A stretch of DNA of 64,000 nt from Gammaproteobacteria bacterium (GCA_965221695.1 OZ244905.1:1760001-1824000), one strand, 5' to 3'. Shown: positions 14,631-41,433, counted from the stretch's first letter. The notes: a model not told the origin generated them from the letters alone. A program made the numbers and translations.

Positions 14631-14781
14631 GGAACCTCTGATTAAGACAGAGGTTCCTACGATACAAGGATGTATCGTCAATATCAATGACTGTAAGGCA
14701 TTGATATTGTGAGGAAAATAAAAATCACATTTTTGTTTTCCGTACTCTGACAAGTCTAGGATGGACTTGTTCAGAGTTTCC
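14631..14781. mobile_element. Long multi-hairpin MITE, copy A (151 bp)
   Basis: Terminal repeats GGAACCTCTGA / TCAGAGTTTCC, TTAA on both sides, five internal hairpins; close to 37650-37803. Confidence 0.88.
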
Positions 14782-14826
14782 TTAATTATATGCTGAAGAT
14801 ACCCGTTGCTGGGGGAGTAACTGAGA

Positions 14827-15369
14827 ATGAACGAGAAACTCAAGATATTCAGCCGACTGCACCACAATGCGCACGTGACCACGGACATGGAGGCCACCAG
14901 GAAATTCTACGAGGAAATTATCGGGTTTCCACTGGTTGCCACCTGGTGTGAAAAGACCGAGTTATTCGGCAGGGAACGAACCTATATGCATTGCTTTTTT
15001 GATATTGGCGATGGCGAATGCCTGGCTTTTTTCCAGTTTGCCGATGAGGATGACCAGCGGGAATTCGGACCGGAATTACCGCTTTCCGGGTTTCGACACC
15101 TTGCCATGAAGGTCGATCAGGATACCCAGGACGGTATTGTCGAGCGCTTGACGGACGCCGGTTACAAGGAACCTGACATGTATATCCTCAACCATGGCTA
15201 TTGTTATTCGCTGTATGTGTATGACCCGGCCAAGCTGTTGATCGAATTTACCGTCGATCACGAAGATGTCGAGCAAATCAACGCAGATCAGCGTAGTAAG
15301 GCCCGGCGCGAACTCAGTCGCTGGCTCGCCGGCGACCATACGCCGAATAACGAGGCCTACCACCGGTAA
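14827..15369 (+). CDS. VOC (glyoxalase/bleomycin resistance/extradiol dioxygenase) family protein
   Basis: LHHNAHVT...FYEEIIG, HLAMKV and SLYVYDPAKLLIEF motifs. Confidence 0.88.
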   Translation: MNEKLKIFSRLHHNAHVTTDMEATRKFYEEIIGFPLVATWCEKTELFGRERTYMHCFFDIGDGECLAFFQFADEDDQREFGPELPLSGFRHLAMKVDQDTQDGIVERLTDAGYKEPDMYILNHGYCYSLYVYDPAKLLIEFTVDHEDVEQINADQRSKARRELSRWLAGDHTPNNEAYHR

Positions 15370-15391
15370 CGCGGTTTGCAGAGAAGATCCA

Positions 15392-16732
15392 ATGTATGAC
15401 AGGCAAACCGAAACCAGGCCGCTGGCCGACCAATTTTCGTTGGACCGGGAAGTATACCGGAACCAGGTAAGGTACATATTCGAACGATCTGCGTTTTATC
15501 GGCGCAAGTTGAGTGAGGCCGGGTTTCGCACGCCTGAAGAAGTGGGTGAACTGGATAATATCTCCGACCTCCCGTTCACTGAGAAAGATGAGCTCAGGGC
15601 GACCCAGGCAGCCTCTCCCCCGTTTGGGGAGCACCTGGCGTGTTCTCCGGAAGCATTACGGCGCGTCTACAATACCAGCGGCACGACTGGCGTACCCTGT
15701 CTGTTGGCGCTTACGCGCAAGGATCTGGATGTCTATGCAACGAATGTAGCCCGCGGCTATACCGCGGCCGGTTTTTCCAGGGGGCAACGTATCGTTGTCG
15801 GATTTAATGCGGGACCCTTTGTTGCCGGCGCGGTATACGATGGATTTAACAAGATTGGCTGCACGGTCATTCCAATAGGAACCGGAAACACGGAACGCTT
15901 GGTGGCGGCAATCAGGAACCTCAAAGCGACGGGGATAAGCTGCACGCCATCTTACGGACAATACCTGATCGACTGGTGCGGCAAACATGATATCGATACC
16001 CGCAGCCTGGGTCTGAAGAACATGATCACCGCGGGAGAACCGGGGGGCGGCGACCCGCTGATTCGCGGGCGCCTCGAGGACGCGTTTGGCTGCAGGGTGC
16101 GTGAATCCATGGGGATCGGCGATATCACTTTATCAGCCTGGGCCGAGGACGACGACGGCAACGGTATGCACTTCATGGCCCGTGGTTATGCCCATGTGGA
16201 ACTCATAGATCCCGAAACCGGCGCGCCGCGCGCCTGGGAGGACGGCGCGCAGGGCGAACTGGTATATACGGCATTACAGCGGGAGGCAATGCCATTGTTA
16301 CGCTTCCGCAGTCGCGACCATGTAGTAGTAAACATGCAACCTAATCCACTGGGTCGAACCGGACCCAGGATACGTTGTATCGGGCGGACTGACGACATGC
16401 TCATCGTGCGCGGCGTCAATGTGTTTCCGTCGGCGCTGCGTAGCGTGCTCAACGACTTCTCCCCTGATGTGTCGGGTGTAATACAGGTAAGACCCAGAGA
16501 AACAGGGGTGAGGCAGACACTGCCGCTGCCGGTAGTGGTTGAACTTGGCCGAGACGGCGCGGTAGCGTCTGGTCATTTACAGCAACGAATCGCGGATGAG
16601 GTGCGCGCGCGGCTACTCGTTACCACTGACATCAAACTGGTCCCTTACGGGACGTTGCCCCGGGAAGTCTATAAGTCACGGCTGGTCGATTATTCCGATG
16701 CGATGCCGGCGGAAGCCGTGGCCGCCGGATGA
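15392..16732 (+). CDS. Phenylacetate--CoA ligase family protein
   Basis: NTSGTTG, AGEPGG and IGRTDDMLIVRGVNVFP motifs; ATG at 15392. Confidence 0.9.
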   Translation: MYDRQTETRPLADQFSLDREVYRNQVRYIFERSAFYRRKLSEAGFRTPEEVGELDNISDLPFTEKDELRATQAASPPFGEHLACSPEALRRVYNTSGTTGVPCLLALTRKDLDVYATNVARGYTAAGFSRGQRIVVGFNAGPFVAGAVYDGFNKIGCTVIPIGTGNTERLVAAIRNLKATGISCTPSYGQYLIDWCGKHDIDTRSLGLKNMITAGEPGGGDPLIRGRLEDAFGCRVRESMGIGDITLSAWAEDDDGNGMHFMARGYAHVELIDPETGAPRAWEDGAQGELVYTALQREAMPLLRFRSRDHVVVNMQPNPLGRTGPRIRCIGRTDDMLIVRGVNVFPSALRSVLNDFSPDVSGVIQVRPRETGVRQTLPLPVVVELGRDGAVASGHLQQRIADEVRARLLVTTDIKLVPYGTLPREVYKSRLVDYSDAMPAEAVAAG

Positions 16733-16774
16733 AGACAGAAACTATGGGGATGAATCTGAGTACAGGGGAAGATT

Positions 16775-17827
16775 ATGTGGCCATTCGCTGAAGGCGAGGA
16801 ATTTCTGGAGAACCAGTGGTATGTCGCGGCGTGGAGCAGCGAAGTCACTGCGGAGCGTCCGTTTGAGCGCTGGATCTGCGGGCAACCGGTGGTTTTTTAC
16901 CGGGATACGCAAGGCAAGCCCGTCGCCCTGTATGGCCGTTGCCCACACCGCAGCTTCCCGCTGGCCAAGGGGCAGGTGCGCGGCGACGTGTTGGAATGCG
17001 GTTATCACGGTTTTCAATACGGCCCTGACGGCAACTGTGTCAGGATTCCGAGCCAGGAAACCATTCCTGATGTCTGCCGGGTGCCGGCATACGTGCTGGT
17101 AGAGAAATGGAAGTGGCTATGGATCTGGGTCGGCGACCCGGCGCAGGCAGACCCTGACCGAATTCCCGATCACAATGAAATACGTCTGACCGAGCCCGGT
17201 TGGCTCGCCGTTCCGGCGCTCACAAATCACCTCAACGGGCGGGCGCAGTTGCTGCATGAGAACCTGACGGATATCTCGCACCTGTCCTACCTGCACCCGG
17301 GCACCATAGGGACAGACTCGGTGGCGGCCACACAGGTGGAAATTTCCGAACACGATGGATTTCTGCGCGGACTGCGGATGATCCCCAATGAGAAGCTGAC
17401 CGGTTTCTTCAAGGAAGCGCTCGGTACCGAGGGTCCGCTGGACCGGGAGGTATTGATTGATTTTTATCCTCCCAACCTGCATGTTGCGCGCGAAAAGTTT
17501 ATTCAGCCGGGGGGCGATACTGTTGCCCAGTATCGGGTCTGTCACGCAGTGACCCCCGCAACGGCGACATCAACCAACTATCTGGTTGCCTGGTCTCGTA
17601 CCTTTGCCCGAGATAACCAGGAAATTACCGACACGGTCAACAGTGTATTTTCGGCCATTATCGATGAGGACATCGAAGCGGTGGAAGCCGTAGAAAAGAT
17701 GATCTCGGATCAGCGGCAACCCGCGGAAATACTGGTTGCCGCAGATACGCACTCAATGAAGGCGCGCAGAATCATGAAAAAACTGTTTGCAGAACAGACT
17801 GCATCAGCCTTAGCCAATGCCATATAA
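16775..17827 (+). CDS. Rieske non-heme iron oxygenase alpha subunit (VanA-like)
   Basis: CPHR...CGYHG Rieske motif, ENLTDISHLSYLH iron site and EDIEAVE. Confidence 0.92.
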   Translation: MWPFAEGEEFLENQWYVAAWSSEVTAERPFERWICGQPVVFYRDTQGKPVALYGRCPHRSFPLAKGQVRGDVLECGYHGFQYGPDGNCVRIPSQETIPDVCRVPAYVLVEKWKWLWIWVGDPAQADPDRIPDHNEIRLTEPGWLAVPALTNHLNGRAQLLHENLTDISHLSYLHPGTIGTDSVAATQVEISEHDGFLRGLRMIPNEKLTGFFKEALGTEGPLDREVLIDFYPPNLHVAREKFIQPGGDTVAQYRVCHAVTPATATSTNYLVAWSRTFARDNQEITDTVNSVFSAIIDEDIEAVEAVEKMISDQRQPAEILVAADTHSMKARRIMKKLFAEQTASALANAI

Positions 17828-17855
17828 GATTCACAAGTAATCGGAGGAACCAACA

Positions 17856-20054: not shown

Positions 20055-20060
20055 CATCTA

Positions 20061-20276
20061 TCACGTATCATTATGTTGAAAATAATACGTCGCAATACTG
20101 CCAATTACTATGCCTCCGATTCCTAAAGTCAGTACGGTTTTAGCAAAGTCGTAGTTACCGTTGATGTAGGAGTCATAGATAAGCCAAAGCAGAAAAGCGC
20201 TTGTCAGCAAATAGCGCGTCCCGGCGAACATCATCCGTGATTGTTGCGGCTGCTTTGATAGCGTCGCGAAGTTCAT
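20061..20276 (-). CDS. Small two-TM hypothetical protein (uncertain)
   Basis: 71 aa with two hydrophobic stretches; no family recognised. Confidence 0.35.
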   Translation of the reverse strand: MNFATLSKQPQQSRMMFAGTRYLLTSAFLLWLIYDSYINGNYDFAKTVLTLGIGGIVIGSIATYYFQHNDT

Positions 20277-20373
20277 TTTTCACACTTGTTTCCAATCAAG
20301 CCCGTAAATCTAACCAATTCGCTTGTGTTGATCCAACTTGTCTTCGACAACACGTCAAGTCATCCCCCACCGA

Positions 20374-20396
20374 TAAGTCAGAGGTCCTAAGATACA
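20374..20396. repeat. Fragment of the long MITE
   Basis: TAAGTCAGAGGTCCTAAGATACA resembles TAAGACAGAGGTTCCTACGATACA of copy A. Confidence 0.55.
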
Positions 20397-22909: not shown

Positions 22910-24190
22910 ATGAGGATCCTGGCTGTCGGCGATATACACCTGGGACGCACGCCATCCCGGTTACCGGAAGAACTATCAGCTCGGGCGCGCGAATTGGGTC
23001 CGGTCGGCGCTTGGAAACGCGCAGTAGACGTTGCGATTGATACCGGCGTCAAAGCCGTTTTGTTAGCCGGCGATGTGGTCGAACGGGAAAACGATTTCTT
23101 CGAGGCCTACCGGGAACTGGAGCAGGGTGTCCGGCGACTTACCGAAGCCGGCATTGATGTCATCGGCGTCGCCGGCAACCACGACGTGAAAGCGCTGCCC
23201 CGTCTGGCAAAACACATTCCTGAATTTCGACTCCTGGGCGCCGGGGGGCACTGGGAGTACTGCCGGATCGGCGATAATGCGAATTCGCTCACCCTCTGGG
23301 GATGGTCGTTCCCCCGAAAGGAAGTCCGAACAAGTCCTTTATCCGATCAATCCTTCGCGCGTCAGAGCGGCATTAACCTGGGATTGTTACACTGCGACCG
23401 GGACTCTGTAGACAGTCCTTACGCCCCGGTCAGCAGCCGGGAGTTGCAGCAATCGGGGCTCGACGGCTGGCTGCTGGGACATATCCACAAGCCAGATGGC
23501 TTGTCTGTGGGGTCACTGAGCGGGTATCTCGGCAGCCTCACCGGACTCGATCGCAGCGAAACCGGCTCCCATGGACCCTGGCTTATCGGCATAGACCGGG
23601 GCAAGATTGAATCGGTTGAGCAACTGCCGTTGGCGCCGCTACGCTGGGAGACCGTGGAGGTTGACCTGGAAGGTATTGGCGAACCGGCAGAGGGGAATGA
23701 GCGACTCCTGATTGCCTTGCGTGAACTGGATCGTGAAATCGTAAAGATTGCCGCGGCGAGAGACCCGGTCGTCGCGCCGGATGCGGTCGGGGCGCATATC
23801 ATTTTGCGCGGGCGTACTCGCTTCGGCGCCGTCGCGTATGACCAAATTTCCGGACAGCGCGGAGAGATTGTCTACAGCCCCGACGACCGGGAGTACTTCA
23901 TCGGGCAGGTCAGCGTGAACACCCATCCTGAGATCGACCTGGAAGAACTCGCAAGGCAACTTACCCCGCCGGGATTACTGGCAAGACGCCTGCTCTTGCT
24001 GGATGAGCCGGAAGGCCATCCCGAACGGGACGACCTGGTGGCCAAGGCTCGCCGGCGTTTGCGTGAACAGGGGCAAAAACCTCTCTGGAATGGCCTGGAT
24101 ACCGATGACCCTGACCCGGTCGCCCGCTTGCGGGAAGCCGGGTTACGCGCCCTGGATCAATTACTGGCGCAAGCTGCCGATAAGAGTTAA
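22910..24190 (+). CDS. Mre11/SbcD-like metallophosphoesterase (YhaO-like)
   Basis: GDIHLG, AGDVV, GNHD and LGHIH motifs. Confidence 0.9.
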   Translation: MRILAVGDIHLGRTPSRLPEELSARARELGPVGAWKRAVDVAIDTGVKAVLLAGDVVERENDFFEAYRELEQGVRRLTEAGIDVIGVAGNHDVKALPRLAKHIPEFRLLGAGGHWEYCRIGDNANSLTLWGWSFPRKEVRTSPLSDQSFARQSGINLGLLHCDRDSVDSPYAPVSSRELQQSGLDGWLLGHIHKPDGLSVGSLSGYLGSLTGLDRSETGSHGPWLIGIDRGKIESVEQLPLAPLRWETVEVDLEGIGEPAEGNERLLIALRELDREIVKIAAARDPVVAPDAVGAHIILRGRTRFGAVAYDQISGQRGEIVYSPDDREYFIGQVSVNTHPEIDLEELARQLTPPGLLARRLLLLDEPEGHPERDDLVAKARRRLREQGQKPLWNGLDTDDPDPVARLREAGLRALDQLLAQAADKS

Positions 24191-27100
24191 TGCGACTCAA
24201 GCGTTTACACATCCGAACGCTACCCGGCATCGAACCCGGCTTTACGTTCGAGCCGCCCGACGCCGGTATCAATATCGTGACCGGTCCCAACGCTATCGGC
24301 AAAAGCAGCCTGGCGCGCGCCTTGGGTTATCTCCTGCACACTCAGAAAAACGACCCGGTAGCGCTTTCTCTGGAGGCTGAGTTCGAGGGTGACGAGACTG
24401 CTTGGCGCGTAGTACGCAACGGCAGCCAGATCATCTGGCATCGGGACGGCAGATCCACATCGCCGCCGGCGTTGCCCGGCGCCGGCCAGACTGGGCTGTA
24501 TCGCCTGTCAATGGAAAGCCTGCTGGACAGCGATGACCAGGATCGCGATCTTGCCCGGGAGTTGCGTAACAGCTTGCGCGGCGGTTTTGATCTTGATGCG
24601 CTGCGTACCGAATTGGGCGCTCGCTTTGCGCAAAACGATCAAAAGAACCTGCGCAACGCAGAGAAGGCGTTGCGACAGGCGGAAGCGGAATATGACGCAT
24701 TGGAGCGGCAGGAACGGGAGGAACTGCCCCGTCTTGAGCGTGAGCTCAAGGCCGCGCAGGAAGCGCAGGAAAGATTGAAGCGCCTGCAACATGGACTGGA
24801 CCTGCACAAAGCTATTCAGGCAAAAAAGTCCTGCGAGGAGCAACTTAATGCATATCCACCCGACATGGATCGGCTGCGCGGCGGTGAACGGGATGACCTG
24901 GCGAAGCTGGAACAAAGAGAGAAATCATTACTGGAAAAGCTCAGGGATCAACAGCGCCAGCTGCGCGCGGCCGAAGCGGTGTTGGAACAGACCGGACTTC
25001 AAGATTCAGGCCCCGCTCCGGAGGACATGGACGCGATGGAATCGCGTCTACAATCGCTTGGACAAAAACTGGCGCGACGAAATAATGCACGGGTTGCGCG
25101 AGAGCAGGCTGCTGCCGGTCTGAAACAAGCGCTGGAACCGTTCAATAACGATGGTAAACCGCCCAGGCTGGATGAGGAGGACATCAAACAGGCAGAGGAG
25201 ATCGCAGTACCGCTGATTAAGGAACAATATAAACGGGAAGCGCTGCAACTGAAACTTGACCAGGCCGGTCAACCTCCCGATGAAACCGAAATCAACAAGT
25301 TGTACGAAGCCGGCAGCGCCCTGCGCGAGTGGCTGGCGGCTTCGGCAGGGGAGTCGCAAGTTCAACCGGAATCACCCAATCGTTGGTTGCGAAGCGCATT
25401 TTGGGTTGCCCTGACGGCCAGCGGCCTTGCCGCTGTGCTGGCGTTGGTAGAACAGGCATGGTTAACCTTTTCAGCGCTGATAGTCGCACTGGTAGCTTTG
25501 AGCATAGCGTTATGGGGACTGATGCAACGACAGCGTCCCGTGGCCGGGTCAACTGCCGGCAACGCAAAACAGCGCTTCATCCGAACTGGCTTGAACGAGC
25601 CGCCGGAGTGGACTGCCGCCATAGTAGAAGAATACCAGCGCGCGGAAATCGACAAACGCCACAGTGCCCTGGCGCTGCAAAGGGAACATGCGGCGCAGGC
25701 TGGGAGCCTTTGTGCTGAACTCAAAAAGGTTGAGTCAGACATCACAAGGTTGCACGTGTCAAAACAGGAAGCCGCCGCACGTCTTGGCTTTGACCCGGCA
25801 TTGCCGAGTATCAGCCCCGATATCTTTCTGCAATACTGCCGCCAACTGCTGGAGGCGCAAAGCCGCCACGCTCAGGCAAACGCTGAACTGGCTGAAGTGG
25901 AACGGGACATTGCTGATGACATCGGCTCGGTGCGTGACTTTCTGGCTCCTTGGGTTAGCACAGATGAGGATATCCACCGGTTACAGGCGTCATTTCGGAA
26001 CCTGAAGCGACGCTTTGATGACGCGCAAGGCGCAAGAAAAGACATTACTCACTATAAGCATGAGATTCAGTCATCAGAGGAGGCAATCAAACAAAGTCGC
26101 GCCGATATCGAAGCTGTCTTCACACAATGCAAACTTGAACCGGGCGCCCATATTGAACTTTACCAACGGCTGGAGGGCCTGGAGCAATGGAAGGAAAAAC
26201 GGAAAGATCTTTACGACGCGGAGAATGAGGAGAAACGTATACGATCCCTGCTCTTGTCTCACGCAGATATCATCAGGAATGTCGATGAAGACAAGCTCGC
26301 GGCCTTGGAGACTGAATTTGCCAAGACGGCAGAGCAGGCCGACAAGCACACGGAACTGCTGCGGCAGCAAACTGAAATCACCACACGGCTTGCAGACGCC
26401 GGCAAAGAGCATAAGCTAAGCCAGGCGCGCGCCAGCTTGGACAGCGCCAGAGCGACCTTGCAAGACAAGCGTGAGCAGGCCTGGTTGTATGAAACGACTG
26501 AACTCTTGCTCAACGATGTTGAACAGGCATTCCATAGTGAAAACGAACCGGAAATTCTCAGTCGCGCCCGTAAGCTGTTCCGGAACATCACTGCAAATGC
26601 CTTCGACCTGCAACTGGACAAGGACGACACATTCTTCGCGCGGGACCTCAAACAAGAAGCGCCACGACAGGTGAGCGAACTCTCTTCTGGCACGCGCATG
26701 CAACTGTTGCTCGCGCTGCGCATGGCCTGGCTCGAAGCGCAGGAGCAGGGCGGAGAGACTCTGCCGTTGTTCCTGGACGAAGCGCTGACCACCAGCGATG
26801 AAGAGCGTTTCGCCGAGATGGCGAAGAGCCTTGAACGGCTGGCGTACGCGCAAGAGCGGCAGATATTCTACCTGTCTGCGCGACGGCACGAGCGCGCGCT
26901 ATGGAAGCAGGCTACCGGAAATGAACTGCCAACCATTGATCTTGCCGACGTGCGCTTTCCCCGGCAGGCGCGCGCCTCGCATGAGTATGATATCTCACCA
27001 CCCTCGTCGCTGCCGTCCCCGGAGGGACAAACACCTGAGGATTATGCTTCCGCTCTTGGCGTGCCTCCCTTCAACCCGCACCTGGAGCCCGGCGCGACGC

Positions 27101-27633
27101 ACCTCTTCTACCTGTTGCGTGATAACCTGGATCTCCTGTGCCAGCTAATGGAAAACTGGCGTATCGCCAGTCTGGGCCAGCTTGAAGGCTTGCTCAACAG
27201 CGATGCGGTGTCTGCCGCGATAGCCGACAGCGAACTTCAGAGCCGGCTTCGGCACAGACTCAAGACCGTGCGCGCCTGGATCACTCTATGGCGCCGGGGC
27301 AGGGGTCGCCCCGTGAATCGTATTGCCCTGGAACAGTCAGGCATCGTATCTGAAACATTCATGGATCGCCTCTCGGACCTTGCCGAGACCGTCAACGAAG
27401 AAGGGAAGACGCTGGTGGAAGCGTTACGCGCCGGAAAGGTATCCCGTTTCCAAAGCAGCAAGATTGAAGAACTGGAGCGCTGGCTGGCTGGCGAGGGCTA
27501 CATTGAGCTGGAACCGGTTCTCTCCGCAGACGAGCGCCGGCGCCTGACGCTGCAACAGGTCATGTCCGTTCCCAACGCCGATGTGGAAGACGCCAACCGG
27601 GTCATCACCTGGCTGGAGTCGGCAAGTCCCTGA
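24190..27633 (+). CDS. YhaN-like Rad50/SMC-type coiled-coil ATPase
   Basis: Walker A GPNAIGKS, signature LSSGTRMQL, Walker B LPLFLDE, central hydrophobic hairpin; 1-nt overlap with the upstream gene. Confidence 0.88.
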   Translation: MRLKRLHIRTLPGIEPGFTFEPPDAGINIVTGPNAIGKSSLARALGYLLHTQKNDPVALSLEAEFEGDETAWRVVRNGSQIIWHRDGRSTSPPALPGAGQTGLYRLSMESLLDSDDQDRDLARELRNSLRGGFDLDALRTELGARFAQNDQKNLRNAEKALRQAEAEYDALERQEREELPRLERELKAAQEAQERLKRLQHGLDLHKAIQAKKSCEEQLNAYPPDMDRLRGGERDDLAKLEQREKSLLEKLRDQQRQLRAAEAVLEQTGLQDSGPAPEDMDAMESRLQSLGQKLARRNNARVAREQAAAGLKQALEPFNNDGKPPRLDEEDIKQAEEIAVPLIKEQYKREALQLKLDQAGQPPDETEINKLYEAGSALREWLAASAGESQVQPESPNRWLRSAFWVALTASGLAAVLALVEQAWLTFSALIVALVALSIALWGLMQRQRPVAGSTAGNAKQRFIRTGLNEPPEWTAAIVEEYQRAEIDKRHSALALQREHAAQAGSLCAELKKVESDITRLHVSKQEAAARLGFDPALPSISPDIFLQYCRQLLEAQSRHAQANAELAEVERDIADDIGSVRDFLAPWVSTDEDIHRLQASFRNLKRRFDDAQGARKDITHYKHEIQSSEEAIKQSRADIEAVFTQCKLEPGAHIELYQRLEGLEQWKEKRKDLYDAENEEKRIRSLLLSHADIIRNVDEDKLAALETEFAKTAEQADKHTELLRQQTEITTRLADAGKEHKLSQARASLDSARATLQDKREQAWLYETTELLLNDVEQAFHSENEPEILSRARKLFRNITANAFDLQLDKDDTFFARDLKQEAPRQVSELSSGTRMQLLLALRMAWLEAQEQGGETLPLFLDEALTTSDEERFAEMAKSLERLAYAQERQIFYLSARRHERALWKQATGNELPTIDLADVRFPRQARASHEYDISPPSSLPSPEGQTPEDYASALGVPPFNPHLEPGATHLFYLLRDNLDLLCQLMENWRIASLGQLEGLLNSDAVSAAIADSELQSRLRHRLKTVRAWITLWRRGRGRPVNRIALEQSGIVSETFMDRLSDLAETVNEEGKTLVEALRAGKVSRFQSSKIEELERWLAGEGYIELEPVLSADERRRLTLQQVMSVPNADVEDANRVITWLESASP

Positions 27634-28799: not shown

Positions 28800-29924
28800 T
28801 CAATTCCGAAGCCGTTCAAATTCGGTTCTGGAAATATCAGTTTGGCGGAAGAAGTACTGAAGAAACTGGCCGGTTAACACACTATGTGGAGTTGGGTTCT
28901 CAATATAGTAATTCATGCTGAACCGGCAATTTTGTCTTTTTTCCGATTTCAGGTTACCCAGGCTTACAAATGGTCCTGCCATTAGGCTGAATTCCTCGAA
29001 GGAAAATTTTTTGTGTAGTGGCCAATCGCCTAGCAGATCCAATGCTTGACTGGTATCGAATGCATCACCAACGTAGTCGACGACACTCATACCACGTAAC
29101 TCCTCGTTTCTTTGAATCAGTGTAATGCCGTCCTCTTCCAAATGCATAGTGCCAAGGGGGATGGATTTCCCGCGCAATTTACCCGCGCCGCTAGCGGGAC
29201 GTTCGTATATGCATAATACCAATCCTCCTGCTTTTGTTCTGGTGATTTCATCCTTCAGGATATTCATTTTATAATCAGATTCAGCTAGTTTTTGAGCTTG
29301 CTCAGAAGCTGATTGTTCCAGTTCAGCGCTATGCTTTTTTGCTTTCTCTAAGTTGGCCTCGGACTCGGTTAACTGTTCCCTAAGTTTTTCAAGTTCTTGC
29401 TGTAATTTGTTGTCATCCTTAAGCAAATCCATATCTTTATGAGCTATATCCAATTCCTTGGTTAGTTCAGAAATACTATCTTCTGCTTTGGCCGAGCGTT
29501 GCTTTTCTTTTTCCAGGTCTATTTCGGTTTCAGTGAGTTTGTCTTCCAGTTCTTCCACTTTTTCCCTTAACATTTCGTTGTCAAATTTTTCTTGTTCTGC
29601 GTCTTCTGTATTTTCTTCAAGGTCTTTGAGCCAGCTATCAAGTTGTTTGGAACTGGCAGCCTGTTGTTCAACTTCGCGGGTCAACACGGTCCAAACTTCG
29701 CTTAATTCACGTTGAGTATCAGTTTCGGTGATTAACTGTCCCAATTTGGTGGCTTCGGATAATGACTTTGGCCCACCAAAATTTTCCTCAAGGTCTTCTT
29801 CTTTCTGCTGGTAGTCTTTCAGGAACAGGAGCAACACGAATAGTGTAATGAGCATTAATTCGGCCAGGATGATCCCCATCAGAAAACCGCGACGGCTGGC
29901 GCTTAAGGTATCCGGTGAGGGCAT
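28800..29924 (-). CDS. MotB/ZorB-like single-TM coiled-coil protein without a recognisable OmpA domain
   Basis: RRGFLMGIILAELMLITLFVLLLF TM with an intramembrane acidic residue, long coiled coil, two-Cys C-terminal domain. Confidence 0.55.
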   Translation of the reverse strand: MPSPDTLSASRRGFLMGIILAELMLITLFVLLLFLKDYQQKEEDLEENFGGPKSLSEATKLGQLITETDTQRELSEVWTVLTREVEQQAASSKQLDSWLKDLEENTEDAEQEKFDNEMLREKVEELEDKLTETEIDLEKEKQRSAKAEDSISELTKELDIAHKDMDLLKDDNKLQQELEKLREQLTESEANLEKAKKHSAELEQSASEQAQKLAESDYKMNILKDEITRTKAGGLVLCIYERPASGAGKLRGKSIPLGTMHLEEDGITLIQRNEELRGMSVVDYVGDAFDTSQALDLLGDWPLHKKFSFEEFSLMAGPFVSLGNLKSEKRQNCRFSMNYYIENPTPHSVLTGQFLQYFFRQTDISRTEFERLRN

Positions 29925-29961
29925 TGTAACAGCAGCGGGAAAATACGGGACAGGAATGTGG

Positions 29962-31515
29962 CTATCGTCGCAACAAGCGCGATAGTATATTGGACCTTTC
30001 AGGGCTCAGGGTATCAAGAGTATTTCTAAGTTCGATCAATTCCGATAAACTACGATTGACCGCACTAGACAAGGCTTCGGTCCTGGTGGACAGTTCCGAG
30101 AGATGCTGGTTGTGATCGGATCCGAGGTTGCGCTGTGTCAAAATCGTCGCCTGTACCATTTCTAGCAATGTCTTGATAGCATCGCGAGCTTCGACAATAG
30201 AATTGACATTATCCATATCCAGATTGGCGATCTGACTATTGCACTCCGTCAAGTATCGCTGTGTGTCTTCCAAGGAGGACGACAGATTTTGCATACAGTC
30301 AACAAAAAGCTTTGTACTCGAATTAATCTGGTCTAACGCAGGTACTATGCGTTGTGCGATGAGTTCCGACGGTATTTCAATTGCCTGAAAACGCTCCATC
30401 AGCGATTTTTCTATCTTTTGGGAAAGGTTTTGTGTTCGGTCGGCAGCAAAGAGACTGGACAGGCGTTGGTGGATGTCAGCAGATATCTGGTCGGTAAGTT
30501 TGCCTACCGTTTCCGACAAACGGGTGAATATCTGGTCAATATGGGAGACAATCAACTCATCAGAAATATCAATAGTATTCAGTTCGTTTGTAAATTTGGT
30601 GATTGACTGAGAAGCGCTGTCAAGTGCTGGAGAGAGTTGGGAACTGACCAGGTCCGAGGGGATGCTGAGAGCATCCGATATTAGTTCATCTAGGCGATTT
30701 ATGTTCACTACCAATTTATTCGTGGCTAATTTTATGCTGGTGTTCATACCGTTCATGGCTTGGCGCGTATTGATTTGTCCTTCTTCAATTGTTTCAGTAA
30801 GGCTTGCAAATATCTGGTCGGTGCGGGTAGTAATCAGGTTAGCCGGGATTTCAATATTCTCGACCTGATTTGCGAATCTCGTGATTGATTGGGAAGCGGT
30901 ATCCAAAACGGGAGACAGTTTGGAACTGAGCAAGTCAGGCGGTATATTCATCATATCCGATACCCGTTTCTCCAATAGATTCGTATTAGTCGCTAGCTTA
31001 TTGGAAGCTGCTTTCACGCTGGTATTCATCTCTTCGAGAGCTAGCCGGGTAGCGAGTTGTCCTTCTTCAACGATATCAGCTGTTTGACGAATTCTGCCTA
31101 TGGTAGCCTCGGCGACTTCAACCAATTCCTCGCGTACCCTATGCTCAATCTGTTCTGATGATTCCCGTCTGAGACACAGCACCCGTAGGAACAATCCCAA
31201 CACAGTAGTAGAAAGACCTATACCCAAATCACCGACAATATGGGTTATAGGCAGTTCGTCTTCAGTAGAAAACCGATACAGAGATACGCCTAGTGTGCAT
31301 ACTGTAAAGATGAAACCCATATAATAGAGGTTGTCAGCCGCCCGTTCGTCTTGGAAGTGTTCGTAAGCCCAAGCCGCCCCTGTATATGCGACTATGAGAG
31401 CGCATAGAACTAAAACCGTGAGCCATGTCGTTGAGTCAAGTGCAATGCGCATAACAACCAGAAGGACAATTCCGGTAATAATGAACCCGGCGAATAACAC
31501 TTTATTGTCTATCAC
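29962..31515 (-). CDS. MotA/TolQ/ExbB-like (ZorA-like) membrane protein with a long helical tail
   Basis: N-terminal TM cluster with YMGFIFTVCTLG and GDLGIGLSTTVLGL; about 400-aa helical tail containing a 94-aa duplication. Confidence 0.6.
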   Translation of the reverse strand: MIDNKVLFAGFIITGIVLLVVMRIALDSTTWLTVLVLCALIVAYTGAAWAYEHFQDERAADNLYYMGFIFTVCTLGVSLYRFSTEDELPITHIVGDLGIGLSTTVLGLFLRVLCLRRESSEQIEHRVREELVEVAEATIGRIRQTADIVEEGQLATRLALEEMNTSVKAASNKLATNTNLLEKRVSDMMNIPPDLLSSKLSPVLDTASQSITRFANQVENIEIPANLITTRTDQIFASLTETIEEGQINTRQAMNGMNTSIKLATNKLVVNINRLDELISDALSIPSDLVSSQLSPALDSASQSITKFTNELNTIDISDELIVSHIDQIFTRLSETVGKLTDQISADIHQRLSSLFAADRTQNLSQKIEKSLMERFQAIEIPSELIAQRIVPALDQINSSTKLFVDCMQNLSSSLEDTQRYLTECNSQIANLDMDNVNSIVEARDAIKTLLEMVQATILTQRNLGSDHNQHLSELSTRTEALSSAVNRSLSELIELRNTLDTLSPERSNILSRLLRR

Positions 31516-31516
31516 T

Positions 31517-32272
31517 TCAGTGTACGCCAGTTATCTTGGTAACGGAGTTCACGTAACCGCCACAGACTCCCAAGTATTCGTCCCACCAGGAGACAAGCGC
31601 ATTATCCTGAGTGGATCGCTCCGGACGTGTGGGCATAAGGATGTCGATTTGAAAACCATCCAGCATAGGGCATTGATCGTGAAAGCGTCTTCGATTGGAT
31701 TGGTAAACCGTTAGCCAGTCCGGATTGTATTGCGATAACGTCTCTGAGTATTCAATGAGGTCTGATACCAACAAGATGTATTGGGATGAGTCATCCCGTT
31801 CCCGGTCCGCAGCAACCCAGCCTAGAGATGCTACAATAGGAGATTCATTACGTGTTCCCTGTAACTGTTCCAGTGCATTGTTCAAAAACTCTTTAAAACT
31901 GGCATCTTTCAAGCGTTGAAATATAGGCGTATCCTGAAGCTCCTTTCCTGGCTTACACAAATGAAAAATTGGTGGTTGAGCAATCGATTCCACGGTGTAA
32001 ATCTTAATGCGATCATAGACCTCCAGCGCATCAACCCTATCCCAAACCCTGTTCACGATAGAGCGCTGCTGTGTCGCGCCGTAATTTTCCGTAGCATCAA
32101 GCAGTATGGACAGGGTAACGGCAGTGTGTCCTTTTTCTGCCGGACAATAAGTATCATCATCAGTTCTTGGTGATTCAAAGATGAATAACGCACATATCGC
32201 AGCTAAGGCAACTATGGACAGGATAATAAATAAGTTCCTGGCAACGGACGTTTTCTTCTTCCTCCGTCTCAT
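31517..32272 (-). CDS. Membrane-anchored vWA-like domain protein
   Basis: Basic N-terminus plus TM; ILLDATE, NESPIVASL and ILLVSDLIE resemble MIDAS-like strands. Confidence 0.55.
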   Translation of the reverse strand: MRRRKKKTSVARNLFIILSIVALAAICALFIFESPRTDDDTYCPAEKGHTAVTLSILLDATENYGATQQRSIVNRVWDRVDALEVYDRIKIYTVESIAQPPIFHLCKPGKELQDTPIFQRLKDASFKEFLNNALEQLQGTRNESPIVASLGWVAADRERDDSSQYILLVSDLIEYSETLSQYNPDWLTVYQSNRRRFHDQCPMLDGFQIDILMPTRPERSTQDNALVSWWDEYLGVCGGYVNSVTKITGVH

Positions 32273-32280
32273 AACAGTTC

Positions 32281-33756
32281 CTAAGATATCGTGATAGTAA
32301 GTGGGTCAAGGAGAACGATTTCTTTAGACGACTTAATATTGTTTATCATATCTTTAAACTGCTGATTTAACTTGGTGGTGGTCTCGAGTAACTGTTTAAT
32401 GAGAATCTCCTTGCGGTCTTCTATATTGTCTGATGGAAGCTCAAAAATTGCTATCGTTATTCGAGACAACTGTGGCTCGCGTTTGAAATAGGTCGGAGCC
32501 GGTGTCTTCCTGTATTTCGTATTGGTCTGCCGATACTGGTATATCAGTTCCTGATAATCATCGTTAAGGGCATGGCAGGTGCGTTCACATTTTCCTTGGA
32601 ACGCGTTGATACTGGCTATAAGTTCCTGCTCACGGGAAAAGCTGTCAACAAGTTTGCGTTTTTCACATTCTATGTCGTTTGTTCCCTTCTTGCGTAGTTC
32701 TTGGTGTTTTTCTATTGCTTCAGACATTTCCGTATCGTATTTATTCCGCTGTTTATGATAGCGTCGGGCTTTTTCTCCATACTGAGGATAACGATCATCT
32801 TTTGTCAGTCCTTCCCAATAGCCAAAGAGAAAAATGAAAAGTCCTGCGATAGCCAGTAGCACTGACCATACATCGTTAATTCCTAAAGGCGATGCCCAAA
32901 AATCATGTAAGGCGGTGACGCCTATATTTGATATCTGATTATTCAACTCTGTCAGGATTGCGACACTATCCTGCTGAGAACTTACGGTCAACTTTAGCGC
33001 TGCGGAGCGATAATGGCCCATTAACAAATTCAGCCCAATCCCAAAGATTATTGTAAAACTTGTTACTATCAATCCAATGCTCTTTTTTTGAGGATGTCGC
33101 GCCCATGGATAGCTGCTCCAGCGTCCTCCAAATTCATTAGCGATCAAAAGTGGAAGCCAACAATTAAGAACGCAGTACATGATCGATAGAACAAGGACCA
33201 TAGGCAACCCTCCGCTCTCTCTTAAAAGGAATACGGTGATCACCACTTCTATAACAAACGCAAATAGCATCATTAGCCAGCAAGTCCATGGATCCTGATA
33301 TACCGGAGTTCTATCTAACAATTGATGCTCATGACGGAAGTGGCGTAATTCATCGGCAAGGGATCTCAGATTATCAGCGTTCTCAGCTAACGATGCCTGA
33401 ACTGCTTTTCCTTCAATGATAACCTGATCACCCAATGCCTGTAGTTTATCCTGGACTACATCAACGTTCCAGGATGCATGTATTTTTGAAAGCCTGGAAG
33501 TGTTCCTTTGTTGGCGATCTTCGTAGTTCTGCATATATTCGCGCATGCGTTCTTCACACTTTTTGCGAATTGTCTGTTCCGTAGAGGTTTCTTCGTCTGA
33601 CGCGGACGCAGGATGTTCGTTTGCTCCATCGATCTGCGCTTGCTCAATCAAGTGTGTTGACCTGTAGATTTCCTCTTTGTCGAGAGGCGGGAACGGGCTC
33701 AGGATATCTGCTTGGTCGGGTTCCGTATTGCCAAACAAGCGTCGGAACCATTTCAT
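32281..33756 (-). CDS. Four-TM protein with N- and C-terminal coiled coils
   Basis: 491 aa; TMs at about aa 157-205, 226-245 and 296-315, followed by DDRYPQYG; first gene of the operon. Confidence 0.75.
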   Translation of the reverse strand: MKWFRRLFGNTEPDQADILSPFPPLDKEEIYRSTHLIEQAQIDGANEHPASASDEETSTEQTIRKKCEERMREYMQNYEDRQQRNTSRLSKIHASWNVDVVQDKLQALGDQVIIEGKAVQASLAENADNLRSLADELRHFRHEHQLLDRTPVYQDPWTCWLMMLFAFVIEVVITVFLLRESGGLPMVLVLSIMYCVLNCWLPLLIANEFGGRWSSYPWARHPQKKSIGLIVTSFTIIFGIGLNLLMGHYRSAALKLTVSSQQDSVAILTELNNQISNIGVTALHDFWASPLGINDVWSVLLAIAGLFIFLFGYWEGLTKDDRYPQYGEKARRYHKQRNKYDTEMSEAIEKHQELRKKGTNDIECEKRKLVDSFSREQELIASINAFQGKCERTCHALNDDYQELIYQYRQTNTKYRKTPAPTYFKREPQLSRITIAIFELPSDNIEDRKEILIKQLLETTTKLNQQFKDMINNIKSSKEIVLLDPLTITIS

Positions 33757-34656: not shown

Positions 34657-34668
34657 GCTTTTTGCCTC

Positions 34669-34883: not shown

Positions 34884-34891
34884 ATATTAAC

Positions 34892-34908: not shown

Positions 34909-34989
34909 TAATATTATAGTCTGAAACCTGAAAAAGTAAAGTCCCCCTTCAGAAATAGGGATATTGTTTACGCTATAGTCCCCTTTCAA

Positions 34990-37056: not shown

Positions 37057-37124
37057 CTTGGCTCCCCTGAGAAAAATGTAATATCCGGCAGAAAACGTGC
37101 CAATTCAGTGAGAGATATTATAAA

Positions 37125-37153
37125 GGAACCTCTGAGATTAAGTCAGAGCTTCC
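37125..37153. repeat. Short palindromic MITE/REP-like element
   Basis: GGAACCTCTGAGATTAAGTCAGAGCTTCC. Confidence 0.88.
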
Positions 37154-37179
37154 TTTGGATGGTCACTCGTCAGAAAAAA

Positions 37180-37590
37180 CTACGACGGCATCATCTTCGG
37201 ATGAGATACCATCTCCACCTGTTCACGAGTCCATGGTTGAGCACTGTCGCAGTAGATTTCCATGACCGGCCTGACCCAGGATGCGTCGTCCAGGGTGCCC
37301 GCCTTGAGAACAGTGATGGTAGCTACTGCCGATGGTTCGCTGGTGATAACCGACGCGCAGCGCCCGCAGAAATTGCGGTCCAGGGTATTTCCGCTGTCTC
37401 CGGTATCCACATAGGTGGTCATTTCACCGTGGATATCCACGGATCCTCTCGGCATAACCAGGTTTAACGAATATGCCCCGCCACTTTGCTTCTGACAGTT
37501 GATGCAATGACAGATCACCGTCGCCAAGGGGTCTGCCGCGCTCGTGTAACGAATGTTGCCGCACAGGCAACCGCCTTCAATCTTTGCCAT
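37180..37590 (-). CDS. GFA/CENP-V family protein
   Basis: GGCLCGNIRY, CHCINCQK and FCGRC motifs. Confidence 0.93.
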   Translation of the reverse strand: MAKIEGGCLCGNIRYTSAADPLATVICHCINCQKQSGGAYSLNLVMPRGSVDIHGEMTTYVDTGDSGNTLDRNFCGRCASVITSEPSAVATITVLKAGTLDDASWVRPVMEIYCDSAQPWTREQVEMVSHPKMMPS

Positions 37591-37649
37591 GTTTTTCTCC
37601 TGATGGATATTAAAGTACGAGCCTCACCTGGTAAGTATAGGCGAATTAA

Positions 37650-37803
37650 GGAACCTCTGAGATTAAGTCTTAGAGGTTCCTACGATACAAGGATGTATCG
37701 TCAAAATCAATGACTTTAAGGCATTGATTTTGTGGGGAAAACAAAAATCGCATTTTTGTTTTCCGTACTCTGACAAGTCCAGGATGGACTTGTCAGAGTT
37801 TCC
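37650..37803. mobile_element. Long multi-hairpin MITE, copy B (154 bp)
   Basis: TTAA-GGAACCTCTGA ... TCAGAGTTTCC-TTAA with the same five hairpins as copy A. Confidence 0.88.
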
Positions 37804-37820
37804 TTAATATCTCAGTTCCG

Positions 37821-37849
37821 GATAACTCTGAGACTTAATCAGAGTTTCC
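37821..37849. repeat. Short palindromic MITE/REP-like element
   Basis: GATAACTCTGAGACTTAATCAGAGTTTCC just after copy B. Confidence 0.75.
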
Positions 37850-37896
37850 TTTAAGAGGTTATTGAGAATCTGAATATCTGCAAAGCTACCCGCTCT

Positions 37897-39021
37897 TCAT
37901 AATTCCTTGGCAGCTTGTTTGTGAACCTCCAGCAGCGCCGGGATGGTTTCCGGTGGGCGGCGGCCGAAACCGCATTCGGTACTGATACCGAAGTCTGTTT
38001 TGTACTGCTTTGCAACGTCGATACGCGTTGTTGTGCCTTCAACCCCGTCGGTGAGATGTACCAGGCCCAGGTATAGGTGTGTGGCGTCGCTGAGTTGTTG
38101 CAATGGCCGGTAGTAGGCATCATCTTTTCGGTCCCGCGGCGCCGGCATGTGCACCCAGTTGACCTTGCGCCCTGCATGCTTAACCGCTTCGTTGGCCAGG
38201 TGGACGCAGACCGACAGGTCGCGTGGCTCGAATATATGCTTGTGACCGATGTCGCCATAGCAAAAATGGATGCCGAACTCGACCTCGGGCGGGACATTGG
38301 CGGCAAAGGTTTTCAGGATTTGTCGAAAGCGTTTATCAGGGCTCCCCATCAGCAGCTTTGCCAGCAACGGTATTTTCATCGGTAGCTTGTGGCCGGTGAT
38401 TCGTGCCTCATGTTCCAGCACACTGCTTACGTTATCCCACTGTATGGCCAGGTCCTCGGGTGGTATTACCTCCAGCATGCGCCTGATATCCGCGGCCATT
38501 GCGTTTTCATAGGCGGGAATGAAATAGCGCATATCAGCAAAGCGATCCACAAACAAGCACATGCCGTCCACGACCGCCGGCAACGACACCTGGAACCTGA
38601 CTCCTGCGGGGATGATGCCCTGCTCGCGGACTGCGCAAAAAGTCTTGTAGGACTCGATAGCCGCTTCAGCGTACCCGAGTGTTTCAAAACGCAGAGTCTT
38701 GACTCCGTTGCGCAGACCGAATTTCCATAAATCCGACGCGTCGTTGGCCATCGGTATCCAGTCCTCACTGGGATTTCGCCATTCAAGCGGGTTGTCCGGG
38801 TCCACCGGCGGCGGGCGCAATAGGGTGACCACATCCGGATGCCTCGCATAAACAGTATGAGCAAGGTGGCTGATGTACTTGGAACGGTTACCCGTCTCAC
38901 CATCCGGGATTCTTGCGAGGAAGTTTCCGACGGCTGCGCAACACTTGTGAAATACCTCGCCGGCATTGTTACCGGCGATGCTGCCGACAAAATGTATCCT
39001 GTTTCTGTCAGCTATCTTCAT
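37897..39021 (-). CDS. MetE/UROD-like TIM-barrel protein
   Basis: HFVGSI, IPDGETG, RFQVSLP, HFCYGD and STECGFGRR; H-x-C...C resembles the MetE2 Zn ligands. Confidence 0.7.
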   Translation of the reverse strand: MKIADRNRIHFVGSIAGNNAGEVFHKCCAAVGNFLARIPDGETGNRSKYISHLAHTVYARHPDVVTLLRPPPVDPDNPLEWRNPSEDWIPMANDASDLWKFGLRNGVKTLRFETLGYAEAAIESYKTFCAVREQGIIPAGVRFQVSLPAVVDGMCLFVDRFADMRYFIPAYENAMAADIRRMLEVIPPEDLAIQWDNVSSVLEHEARITGHKLPMKIPLLAKLLMGSPDKRFRQILKTFAANVPPEVEFGIHFCYGDIGHKHIFEPRDLSVCVHLANEAVKHAGRKVNWVHMPAPRDRKDDAYYRPLQQLSDATHLYLGLVHLTDGVEGTTTRIDVAKQYKTDFGISTECGFGRRPPETIPALLEVHKQAAKEL

Positions 39022-40217
39022 TTGTTGCGGGCAGACAGGTATTTCAGCGTCGGGAGCATGATGGCCCGAAGCGTGCGTTGCAGGGCTGACAATACCGGTC
39101 CCACTACTTTCGTGTTCTGTGCCGAGGTGAAATTCCCGATGCCGAGGCTGTCACGGAGTTCGCCACCCAGGACCTGCATCGGGGTGTCAAGCGGGATGCC
39201 GGTGGCGTCGGCGATGCGGTCCATCTTCTCGTAATGCGCGACCAGGGCGGCGGCATCCACGAGTTGTTCCGGTCCGAGCTTGTCAAGAATTTCCTCGCGT
39301 ATGCGTTCGAGTGCGGGTTCGTCTCCGGTAACCGCGGCGGTCGCAAAATCGGATAGCAGAGCGCCATGGGCTACCCCGCCGTCGGAACCGTTGGCCCCTT
39401 CGACGGCCAGGCGCAGATCGACCTCCTGCCCCGTAATCTCAGCGCTCGCACGGAGCGCCGCCGCATGTGCGCTGGTTCAGTAGAAGCACTCGTTCAGTGC
39501 TGACACCCGGGTTGCGATCAGCTCTGTCTGGCGGCGGTCCAGCGAGCGCTGCGCGGTGAAGTTCACCAGGTCGGCAAAAGTCAGGTATTCTGCTTGTGCC
39601 AGCTTCTGCAGGCCGCGCGCTTCGTCCGGTACAAGGCTCAGAGAACGTACGATATTCGGCGCGACGGGTAAGGGCACATCTGCGTAGAGATCTGCGTCCG
39701 GACCGCTCGGCTTGGCCAGCAGCGGCACAAAAGCGCCGTAAAAAAGCTTGCCGCTGGCTTTTCTGCGCGATGGATCACCCGCTTGTGGTTCAGGCAGCGA
39801 CCGCGGGGCGATCCCGAGACTGCGGCAAAACGCGTCAACACTAATCGTGAGTACAGTAATGCTGATGATCTCAACATATTGTTCGGGAGTAAGACCATCT
39901 CCAATGGCCTTGTCATAGAAGACACGCGACAGCCTCTGCGGGTCAGTGGTTACCCGATGAATCACCTCAACCGCTGCCGCCGGCAGGATGCCTTCGCTAT
40001 CATGCTCTCCCTCTACCGCGTAAGGGGACAGCGCTGACTTGCGCTCTGCGCAGAAGGCACAGTTCCGTGCCAGGCGTACTTCTGCGGCAATGGATACACG
40101 TTCGCGTCCGTCCCACCAGGCGCCCGGTTGTGCGAGCCGGCTCCATTCCTGCTGTTGGGCGTTGGCTAGATCGGCGCGCACGGGGACCGGCGTGTCGGGA
40201 TAAAATGCGTGTCTCAT
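39018..40217 (-). CDS. AhpD-like alkylhydroperoxidase-related selenoprotein (399 aa, Sec at codon 247)
   Basis: NECFY-TGA-TSAH gives a CxxU motif; the frame stays open for 152 codons after the TGA; hairpin downstream; final stop overlaps the next ATG (ATGA). Confidence 0.78.
39442..39458 (-). promoter_or_regulatory. Candidate bacterial SECIS hairpin
   Basis: GCGCUC-CGUGC-GAGCGC starting 19 nt after the UGA, with GU in the loop. Confidence 0.55.
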
Positions 40218-40319
40218 TATGGTCTCGCCTGTTTTGAATATTTTATCCCACTCGCCAGCTCACCTCACAATACTTGGAATACATTATGATGGTTCAAGCG
40301 TACTGTTTTTTGCCAGCGC

Positions 40320-41288
40320 TCATGGCCTGTCGTTTCGCAGGTGGTTGGCCCGGTAGCGCGAAGGCGTTGTGCCCATACTGCGTCGGAAAGCTTTGCTGAA
40401 CGCGCCTTCTGATTCATAGCCGACCAGTTCTGCGATCTGAGACAAGGATAGCGCGCCGTTGCGGATTTCACAGGCCGCTCGATGCATGCGCGTTTTATAC
40501 AAGTAATTCACCGGCGTATCTCCAATTACTTCGCGAAAACGACTAGCAAATGCCGAACGGCTCAGCAATGCCTCATTGGCTAGACTGGCAACAGTCCATG
40601 GATGATCCAAGCGGGAATGGATCGCGTTGATCGCCCGTTTAATGCGCGAATCTATCAGGCGTGAATTCCAGTTAATATCTTCGCTGAGTAGAGAAAATTC
40701 CATAAATTCTATTGCGATGATTTCCGCAAGTCGCTTGACAATAGCCTCGCGTGCGTCTTTGGAAGCGGTGTATTCAAGCAGTACCAGGTTAATGATATGC
40801 TCAAGCCGCTGGTATATCCGGACATCGTCCGGCGTGACAAGTATCGCTGCTGGAATCACATTCGGCAATGGGTTGGATGAAACCGGGATAGACGCTCTTA
40901 TGATGACCGTCGCTGAAGTATTTAACGCGTTGACAAAATCGAAATCTTCCAGACTGATGAAAGGATCGGAAGCCCTCACATCGACTTTTGTACTGATGGT
41001 GTCCCGCAATGTGTGCCCCGCGCCGCTAGGCAACGTCATGATGCTGTTAGCGCCCACCTCGACTGGCCCGTCGCCATCCATTTCAAACACAGCTTTACCC
41101 TTTCGAAACGCGTACAACAAAGCGATATCTCCTTGAGGGACTGTCAACGACCAGGGTCGTGAAAAAGCGGCTATGCTTATCCACGCTTCAGGCACCCGGA
41201 TATCAAGCAAAGAGTTCATAAAATTCTCCGGACAATTCTCGAACAAGCTCACTCGGACGTCTAACACTTGCTTCAGAACGTCTCTCAA
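40320..41288 (-). CDS. AraC-family regulator with cupin N-terminus (start uncertain)
   Basis: WTVASLANEALLSRSAFASRF and GYESEGAFSKAFRR motifs. Confidence 0.9.
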   Translation of the reverse strand: MRDVLKQVLDVRVSLFENCPENFMNSLLDIRVPEAWISIAAFSRPWSLTVPQGDIALLYAFRKGKAVFEMDGDGPVEVGANSIMTLPSGAGHTLRDTISTKVDVRASDPFISLEDFDFVNALNTSATVIIRASIPVSSNPLPNVIPAAILVTPDDVRIYQRLEHIINLVLLEYTASKDAREAIVKRLAEIIAIEFMEFSLLSEDINWNSRLIDSRIKRAINAIHSRLDHPWTVASLANEALLSRSAFASRFREVIGDTPVNYLYKTRMHRAACEIRNGALSLSQIAELVGYESEGAFSKAFRRSMGTTPSRYRANHLRNDRP

Positions 41289-41313
41289 GTAGAGAAATCC
41301 ATTGTTATTTTAT

Positions 41314-41433
41314 GTAACCTCTAATCAAGTCAGAGGTTCCTGCGGCACAGGGTTGTGTCGCCAATATCAATGACAATAAATCATTGATATTGCGAGCACA
41401 ACAAAAATCGCAATTTTGTTGTGCGTGCTCTGA
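41314..41433. mobile_element. Diverged, right-truncated long MITE, copy C
   Basis: Same hairpin order as copies A and B, with compensatory substitutions. Confidence 0.8.

Follow-up and report, generated by a model that had tools for sequence, protein, structure and literature searches.

The 64,000-nucleotide stretch of gammaproteobacterial DNA analysed here (OZ244905.1:1760001-1824000, hereafter the window) holds three copies, A, B and C, of a 151-bp non-coding element. These repeats are real and constitute a new family of the small transposable elements with inverted repeats known as MITEs, in which each of the defining features tested was found. All three lie where a preliminary description, made from the sequence alone, had placed them, and a covariance model returns identical bounds for A and B. 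Copy A (14631-14781, plus strand) is complete at 151 bp in sequence, model and fold, lies between TTAA duplications (14627-14630 and 14782-14785) and scores 178 bits over model positions 1-151. Its plus strand folds into hairpins H1 (14631-14657), H2 (14659-14678), H3 (14679-14709), H4 (14713-14741) and H5 (14744-14777). The H2 loop, AGGA, falls within an exact plus-strand match (14662-14673) to the 12-mer RUACARGGAUGU, the consensus obtained for the RNA-binding protein CsrA by systematic evolution of ligands by exponential enrichment (SELEX). Copy B (37650-37803, plus strand; 37646-37807 with its TTAA duplications) is likewise complete, scores 164.6 bits and has an exact plus-strand match to the same 12-mer at 37685-37696. 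Copy C (41314-41433, plus strand, 105.5 bits) is diverged, its sequence ending partway through H5's 5' arm. As previously described, GGA has been lost from its H2 loop, which reads AGGGTT, and the last hairpin is missing beyond the first bases of H5. The arm pairs quoted in that description for H2, H3 and H4 also agree with the window sequence.

Minus-strand genes flank copy B on both sides, so the strand of the element that displays GGA in its loops (the GGA strand) is antisense to both. They are a GFA gene with a Pfam match (37180-37590, minus strand) and a 374-aa open reading frame (ORF) with no Pfam match (37897-39021, minus strand). The neighbours of copy C, an AraC-type gene (40320-41288, minus strand) and a phasin gene (41527-41979, minus strand), are both antisense as well, and the truncated end of the copy adjoins the terminator of the phasin gene. 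A 124-aa ORF on the minus strand (14523-14897), outside the set of ORFs scanned, spans copy A.

Relatives in other genomes

Relatives were collected with one pattern scan of genome contigs using the top of hairpin 3, which returned 57 loci (designated by L numbers). The pattern fixed eight H3 pairs, hence the invariance of these pairs is uninformative and copies with an altered H3 top were missed. Nine of the 57 loci are chance matches in unrelated organisms; the remainder belong to 12 assemblies of uncultured Gammaproteobacteria bacterium, together with one partial copy in an Arenicellales assembly. A covariance model built from a 35-copy alignment matched 52 full copies in the 12 assemblies and the window, at 69-186 bits, with the best wrong-strand match at 62 bits. 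These 52 copies reduce to 49 distinct sequences at 50 distinct loci (copy A of the window is also L009, and L018 is the same as L033), and the flanking genes differ from locus to locus. A blastn search of a plasmid collection with copy A gave no match.

Locus L009 is the copy A locus in a public assembly and is 98.1% identical to window positions 13183-16205 over 3023 bp, hence the window comes from the same species as that assembly (CBDCSC01). None of the collected loci corresponds to the site of B or of C, an absence that a changed sequence at the search pattern would explain equally well. Three copies from two other assemblies (L018, L038 and L040) keep H2, H3, H4 and the inner hairpin of H5 with different stems, and have no recognisable terminal repeats.

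Terminal repeats and target-site duplications

The element ends in 11-bp terminal inverted repeats, GGAACCTCTGA ... TCAGAGTTTCC, which are inverted in 45 complete copies. With up to three mismatches, the terminal 15-mer occurs 22 times in the window, where 0.98 occurrences are expected and the largest count in a shuffle was 3. An exact 4-bp target-site duplication was found in 29 of the 45 complete copies and involves seven different 4-mers (TTAA 15, CTAA 3, ATAA 3, TAAA 3, CTTA 2, TTAG 2, TATA 1), while a further seven copies have a duplication matching at three of the four positions. Random pairing of flanks yielded 9.2 exact matches, with a maximum of 18 in 2000 trials. Insertion targets A/T-rich 4-mers, mostly TTAA, CTAA or TTAG, and seven times the gene next to the H5 end has its stop codon within the 4-mer that is duplicated. 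The mobility proposed in the preliminary description is borne out by the terminal inverted repeats, the variable 4-bp duplications and the dispersal of copies over many genomes.

In the passages cited, IS5 insertion sequences have the target motif YTAR and duplicate 4 bp (PMC5009759), and the 151-bp element resembles IS5-type insertion sequences and their MITE derivatives in its 4-bp duplication and in the 20 of 29 exact duplications that fit YTAR. It differs in the nine (ATAA, TAAA, CTTA and TATA) that do not fit, and in that neither a transposase gene nor a full-length element with its ends was detected in the window or the 57 loci. The mover of the family is probably an IS5-like transposase, of which none was found in the sequence examined; such a DDE transposase, acting in trans, would move the element by cut-and-paste. 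No transposase was detected among the ORFs scanned in the window, where the genes are ordinary chromosomal ones, and where terminal repeats form inverted pairs spaced by 500-3000 bp, in the window or the loci, the genes between them are all ordinary ones.

Other transposition mechanisms were ruled out. Repetitive extragenic palindromic (REP) sequences make no target duplications and are tied to REP-associated tyrosine transposases (RAYTs); the terminal repeats and variable 4-bp duplications exclude this mechanism, and no RAYT-like gene was present among the scanned ORFs. Elements of the IS200/IS605 type lack terminal inverted repeats, make no duplication and insert beside a fixed tetranucleotide, and are excluded by the terminal repeats and the true duplications of seven different 4-mers.

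Derivatives of the element were also detected. A 125-bp copy lacks H4 (L034:1451-1575), a form reduced to H1, H2 and H5 lies at the edge of a locus (L013:1-60, minus strand), and copy C and L041 are truncated. In L036, two full inverted copies (190-340, minus strand, and 1449-1599, plus strand) flank a single alanine dehydrogenase/PNT-type gene (357-1448), an arrangement with the layout of a composite transposon.

Conserved pairing and its origin

On its plus strand, copy A forms a row of five hairpins with a folding energy of -69.3 kcal/mol (z -10.3), and the minus strand reaches -63.9 kcal/mol (z -9.7), near-equal values as expected of palindromes. Covariation was counted in the model-fitted alignment of the 52 copies, which leans towards the modelled structure. 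In this alignment 98.0% of cells hold standard pairs, compared with 91.5% after shuffling, and 35 of 55 pairs have changed on both sides, compared with 9.2, with none of 500 shuffles reaching either observed value. Controls in which the partner was slid gave 38-48% pairing, and an independent MAFFT alignment shows double changes at 11 of the 55 pairs. Pairing is clearly preserved across copies, and the compensatory change claimed in the preliminary description holds in the enlarged set of copies and the covariance model that it had proposed as a check. Part of the covariation in H1 and the outer stem of H5 may only reflect both ends tracking the same transposase; double changes also occur in H2, H3, H4 and the inner hairpin of H5. 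Comparison with Rfam, proposed at the same time, yielded no family above threshold: the whole window had no match at the gathering score, and copy A, searched at E values up to 10, gave only sub-threshold matches such as STnc250 (22 bits, where 42 are required) and RsmV (12 bits, where 100 are required).

Preserved pairing could be a DNA phenomenon, produced by intrastrand template switching or conversion from one arm to the other, in which case the hairpins would matter, if at all, as extruded DNA. We regard this alternative as somewhat unlikely. Conversion of hairpins at the DNA level had been raised as a caveat in the preliminary description and now has direct support. In L003:1449-1598 the H3 loop is inverted and its stem and the rest of the copy are not, with seven of nine loop bases matching the reverse complement and four of nine the forward loop. 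Furthermore, a second palindromic element, a GC-rich insert of ~50-70 bp, occurs in OZ252091.1 in the loop of H4 in six copies (L006, L022, L045, L001 and two in L049) or of H5 in one (L055), and is absent elsewhere from the window and loci. Many of the double changes are transversion swaps without a wobble intermediate, such as the A-U to U-A exchange that 16 copies show at a single H3 pair and the G-C to C-G exchange that seven copies show at a single H4 pair, and in H1 of L024 there is a compensated double change shared with no other aligned copy. The near-equal folding of the two strands points the same way.

This alternative leaves three observations unexplained, namely the conserved GGA in the loops and the strong bias in gene orientation, both described below, and an excess of G.U pairs on one strand. 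The preliminary description had placed G-U wobbles on the plus strand, which holds for copy A and for H2 of copy C; across the family the excess is weak. Plus-strand cells in the 49 distinct copies (2619 cells) include 30 G.U against 16 A.C and 36 other mismatches (p=0.054), a ratio that falls to ~20:12 after hand removal of poorly aligned copies, in an alignment that itself favours G.U. Nor can the orientations in the complete chromosome OZ252091.1 (+ + + - + - + - by position) be divided into two arcs, the pattern expected from a process linked to replication. Even if the element does not bind CsrA, the family offers a clean case for separating RNA-level from DNA-level "covariation" in palindromic repeats, the latter being a known trap in predicting structured RNAs from genome sequence.

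Two of the copies with inserts, L001 and the second copy in L049, resemble deletions between two GC-rich inserts.

CsrA-like loops and orientation to genes

In the passages cited from PMC4347634, the CsrA SELEX consensus RUACARGGAUGU has invariant ACA and GGA, with GGA in a hairpin loop. H2 reproduces this hairpin, since the ACA and GGA positions agree and GGA lies in a 4-nt loop closed by ACA/UGU. GGA is present in the H2 loop of 48 of the 49 distinct copies, ACARGGA in 46 and the full 12-mer in 33, and GGA also occupies the H5 loop in 42 of the 46 copies in which that loop is short. Within the window, AUACAAGGAUGU occurs at 14662-14673 and 37685-37696, inside A and B, and nowhere else, with none expected from 100 shuffles. 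The exact match of H2 to the consensus, noted previously for A and B, is thus a property of much of the family. Because GGA is displayed both by H2 and by the inner hairpin of H5, RNA from the plus strand is predicted to bind CsrA well. A scan for csrA, made with two short CsrA motifs on all six reading frames of the window and the 57 loci (227 kb), gave a single match, which was not CsrA-like.

The position of the GGA strand relative to genes was determined with neighbours assigned only where the ORF has a Pfam match, and both flanks qualify at 33 of the 50 distinct loci. Both neighbours are antisense to the GGA strand at 16 loci and both sense at three (binomial p=0.0044), with divergent neighbours at 11 and convergent neighbours at three. 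Adding five loci resolved by ORFs of at least 250 aa brings the antisense to sense ratio to 20:3 (p=0.0005), with 12 loci unresolved. A gene start faces the H1 end at 27 of the 33 loci (p=0.0003), and the gap is 60 nt or less in 22 of 32. Owing to the mostly antisense placement, read-through RNA would carry UCC loops, not GGA loops, at most loci.

Two candidate causes of the orientation bias found no support. A link to replication is ruled out by the strands in OZ252091.1, which cannot be split into two arcs. As to the element acting as a terminator, a scan called no terminator-like site on either strand, and by eye the exits are borderline both ways (H5 followed by TTTCCTT; H1 read backwards followed by TTAA) and do not discriminate.

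The preliminary description had interpreted the element as a transposable structured RNA module that spreads Csr-binding sites as a cis control or a sponge. Such a module would place high-affinity CsrA/RsmA sites, in H2 and H5, into transcripts or, if self-transcribed, would titrate CsrA; going by the sequence, we think this doubtful. The hairpin evidence gives it partial support. H2 is the SELEX hairpin in most distinct copies, the 12-mer is confined to A and B within the window, GGA loops survive in wholly different stems, and the weak plus-strand excess of G.U pairs and the small sub-threshold match of H2 to RsmV point in the same direction, as does the L006 element described below. The orientation bias itself is also in keeping with a plus strand whose transcription exerts an effect. 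Copy A sits between divergent genes, with a plus-strand promoter-like site (14577-14605) just upstream and a gene at 14827, and is a locus at which the GGA strand could form part of that gene's 5' leader.

Control or titration of CsrA by such a module is nevertheless not supported by the rest of the data. The GGA strand is antisense at 16 of the 19 informative, co-directional loci with Pfam support, and the gene start so close to the H1 side at most loci leaves no room for a plus-strand promoter. No such promoter was detected within the element in a scan of A and B, and the upstream sequence of L018, L038 and L040, the three copies without terminal repeats, has no promoter-like site either. 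Each unit has only two GGA sites, and no Csr/Rsm family in Rfam reaches threshold. The element is not assigned to any Csr/Rsm RNA family, the best match among these being that to RsmV.

An unrelated palindromic element of ~110 nt was observed in OZ252091.1 (L006:745-855, minus strand). Its terminal stem of 27 bp surrounds two hairpins with GGA loops, of which one matches the CsrA 12-mer exactly, and the element lies in sense orientation just downstream of a flavin reductase gene. It folds at -68.4 kcal/mol (z -13), has no Rfam match and is the single instance in the window and loci. Coming from a related genome, it is the L006 element counted above in favour of a Csr role.

A variant of the Csr interpretation, which we hold to be unlikely, is that the transposon carries a near-optimal CsrA hairpin as conserved cargo, that its plus-strand RNA binds CsrA, and that sense copies would rewire genes into the Csr regulon or drain CsrA and would mostly be purged. 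If true, this would account for the conservation of GGA as well as for the 16:3 bias towards antisense. The few copies placed in sense, L014 (between ftsZ and lpxC), L036 and L018, and perhaps copy A, would then be domesticated Csr targets, and the hairpin of L006:745-855 would mean that CsrA-type hairpins recur as cargo of the lineage's mobile repeats. Should the GGA hairpins bind CsrA, the family would illustrate a post-transcriptional regulon rewired by transposition, with the orientation bias as a natural record of selection against such rewiring.

A further reading, which we consider improbable, is that the minus strand is the useful one and would supply 5' leaders with a promoter directed outwards, with a GAGG for ribosome binding at its H1 end, or with UCC loops able to pair with Shine-Dalgarno sequences. 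In its favour, gene starts tend to face the H1 end, a minus-strand promoter-like site (TTGATA-17-TATCGT) is called in copy A, and in L029, L030 and L035 the ATG stands 4-5 nt beyond the H1 end with the GAGG of the element, 8-9 nt upstream, as the only Shine-Dalgarno-like sequence. Against it, such a promoter-like site is recognised in only 14 of the 49 distinct copies, B not among them, an 11-bp stem buries the GAGG, and most downstream genes have a Shine-Dalgarno sequence of their own.

Weighing the evidence on function

The best explanation, and in our judgement a probable one, is that the family is a non-coding MITE moved in trans, for the most part a selfish element that does not function as a Csr module. 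Under this explanation, the hairpins would stay perfect either because founding copies need the structure or because template switching between arms restores palindromic DNA. Sense insertions would be removed by selection as they disturb expression, via CsrA capture or otherwise. Selection of this kind, with plus-strand RNA being active and CsrA capture the obvious candidate for its activity, fits the data, and we infer it from the placement of copies. Copies within one species (27) differ little from one another, and three of them equal the consensus.

Several observations weigh against this explanation. A purely selfish element does not explain the conserved GGA, which is the strongest point for a Csr role: the loop GGA survives in L018, L038 and L040, where the stems are wholly different and the terminal repeats are gone. 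Within the species, stems change somewhat more slowly than unpaired positions (0.023, or 0.017 without one polymorphic pair, versus 0.034 substitutions per site per copy), which hints at some constraint on individual copies, and DNA-level conversion alone would not predict that G.U exceeds A.C on the plus strand (30:16). Finally, neither an autonomous parent element with the same terminal repeats nor an empty site was seen in the window or the 57 loci, of which only L009 overlaps the window; movement is for this reason inferred and not observed.

Comparison with known repeats

Promoters, terminators and nuclease sites are known cargo of MITEs. The family described here is a known kind of element, and its cargo is unusual and unexplained. 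Full-text searches of the literature returned no account of a MITE with sites for a global RNA regulator, and no link between MITEs and CsrA/RsmA sites save an Rfam release note, and in the main text of a 2024 review of prokaryotic MITEs (PMC10969869) "CsrA" occurs 0 times.

Several known systems resemble the element in part. The RNAs CsrB/CsrC and RsmX/Y/Z/V share its GGA-loop hairpins, with H2 matching the SELEX optimum, but they are single-locus genes with their own promoter and terminator and many GGA sites, whereas the MITE has two GGA sites, no detected promoter and a mostly antisense placement. Correia repeat enclosed elements (CREE) duplicate TA, have 26-bp repeats and act through promoters, IHF and RNase III. 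Compared by description, the 151-bp element differs from them in its 4-bp duplication, 11-bp repeats, GGA loops and host lineage. The likeness lies in size and habit: in the passages cited, CREE of Neisseria are ~100-150 bp long, non-coding and scattered through intergenic DNA, have a conserved core as well as terminal inverted repeats, fold as RNA and can alter the expression of neighbouring genes (PMC2649163). QMITE elements of Coxiella burnetii are, like the present family, gammaproteobacterial MITEs with stable predicted RNA folds, some of which are described as overlapping small RNAs (PMC5896051, PMC10969869). QMITE2, as described in part of PMC10969869, has 7-9-bp duplications and 23-29-bp repeats, in contrast to 4 bp and 11 bp here.

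Short hairpin units and other features of the window

In addition to the full copies, the window contains seven intergenic hairpin units of ~30 bp that consist of two terminal repeats alone, often touch gene ends and have no assigned strand. They lie at 2517-2545 (two repeats and a 5-7 nt loop), 7368-7394, 12808-12837, 37125-37153, 37820-37849 (16 bp to the right of copy B), 54610-54636 (with TTAA on both sides) and 56983-57009. The third fills the gap between a convergent IclR gene (11980-12795, plus strand) and hydrolase gene (12842-13663, minus strand). These units are minimal relatives of the 151-bp element and, together with A, B and C, account for the occurrences of the terminal 15-mer. 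A lone terminal-repeat-like fragment is also present ~120 bp to the left of copy A (14497-14511, plus strand).

The outer stem of H5 has the same CTCTGA/TCAGAG core as H1 and covaries with the right end. This suggests a build in which H1 would be one complete short unit and the H5 outer stem a second, with the H2-H4 core between them and a fourth hairpin sitting inside the H5 loop. The ~30-bp units look REP-like and adjoin gene ends, as do REP sequences and bacterial interspersed mosaic elements, but their arms are those of the MITE, and in some of them TTAA stands on either side.

Elsewhere in the window, four consecutive ORFs of 374, 517, 251 and 491 aa (28800-33756, minus strand) match no Pfam family at E 1e-5, and the same applies to a 1147-aa ORF beside a metallophosphatase gene (24190-27633). 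The plus-strand ORF at 51519-53657 combines a PPC domain with RTX calcium-binding repeats. It is adjoined by a PIN-domain ORF preceded by an 89-aa ORF (53817-54501, minus strand), a possible toxin-antitoxin pair.

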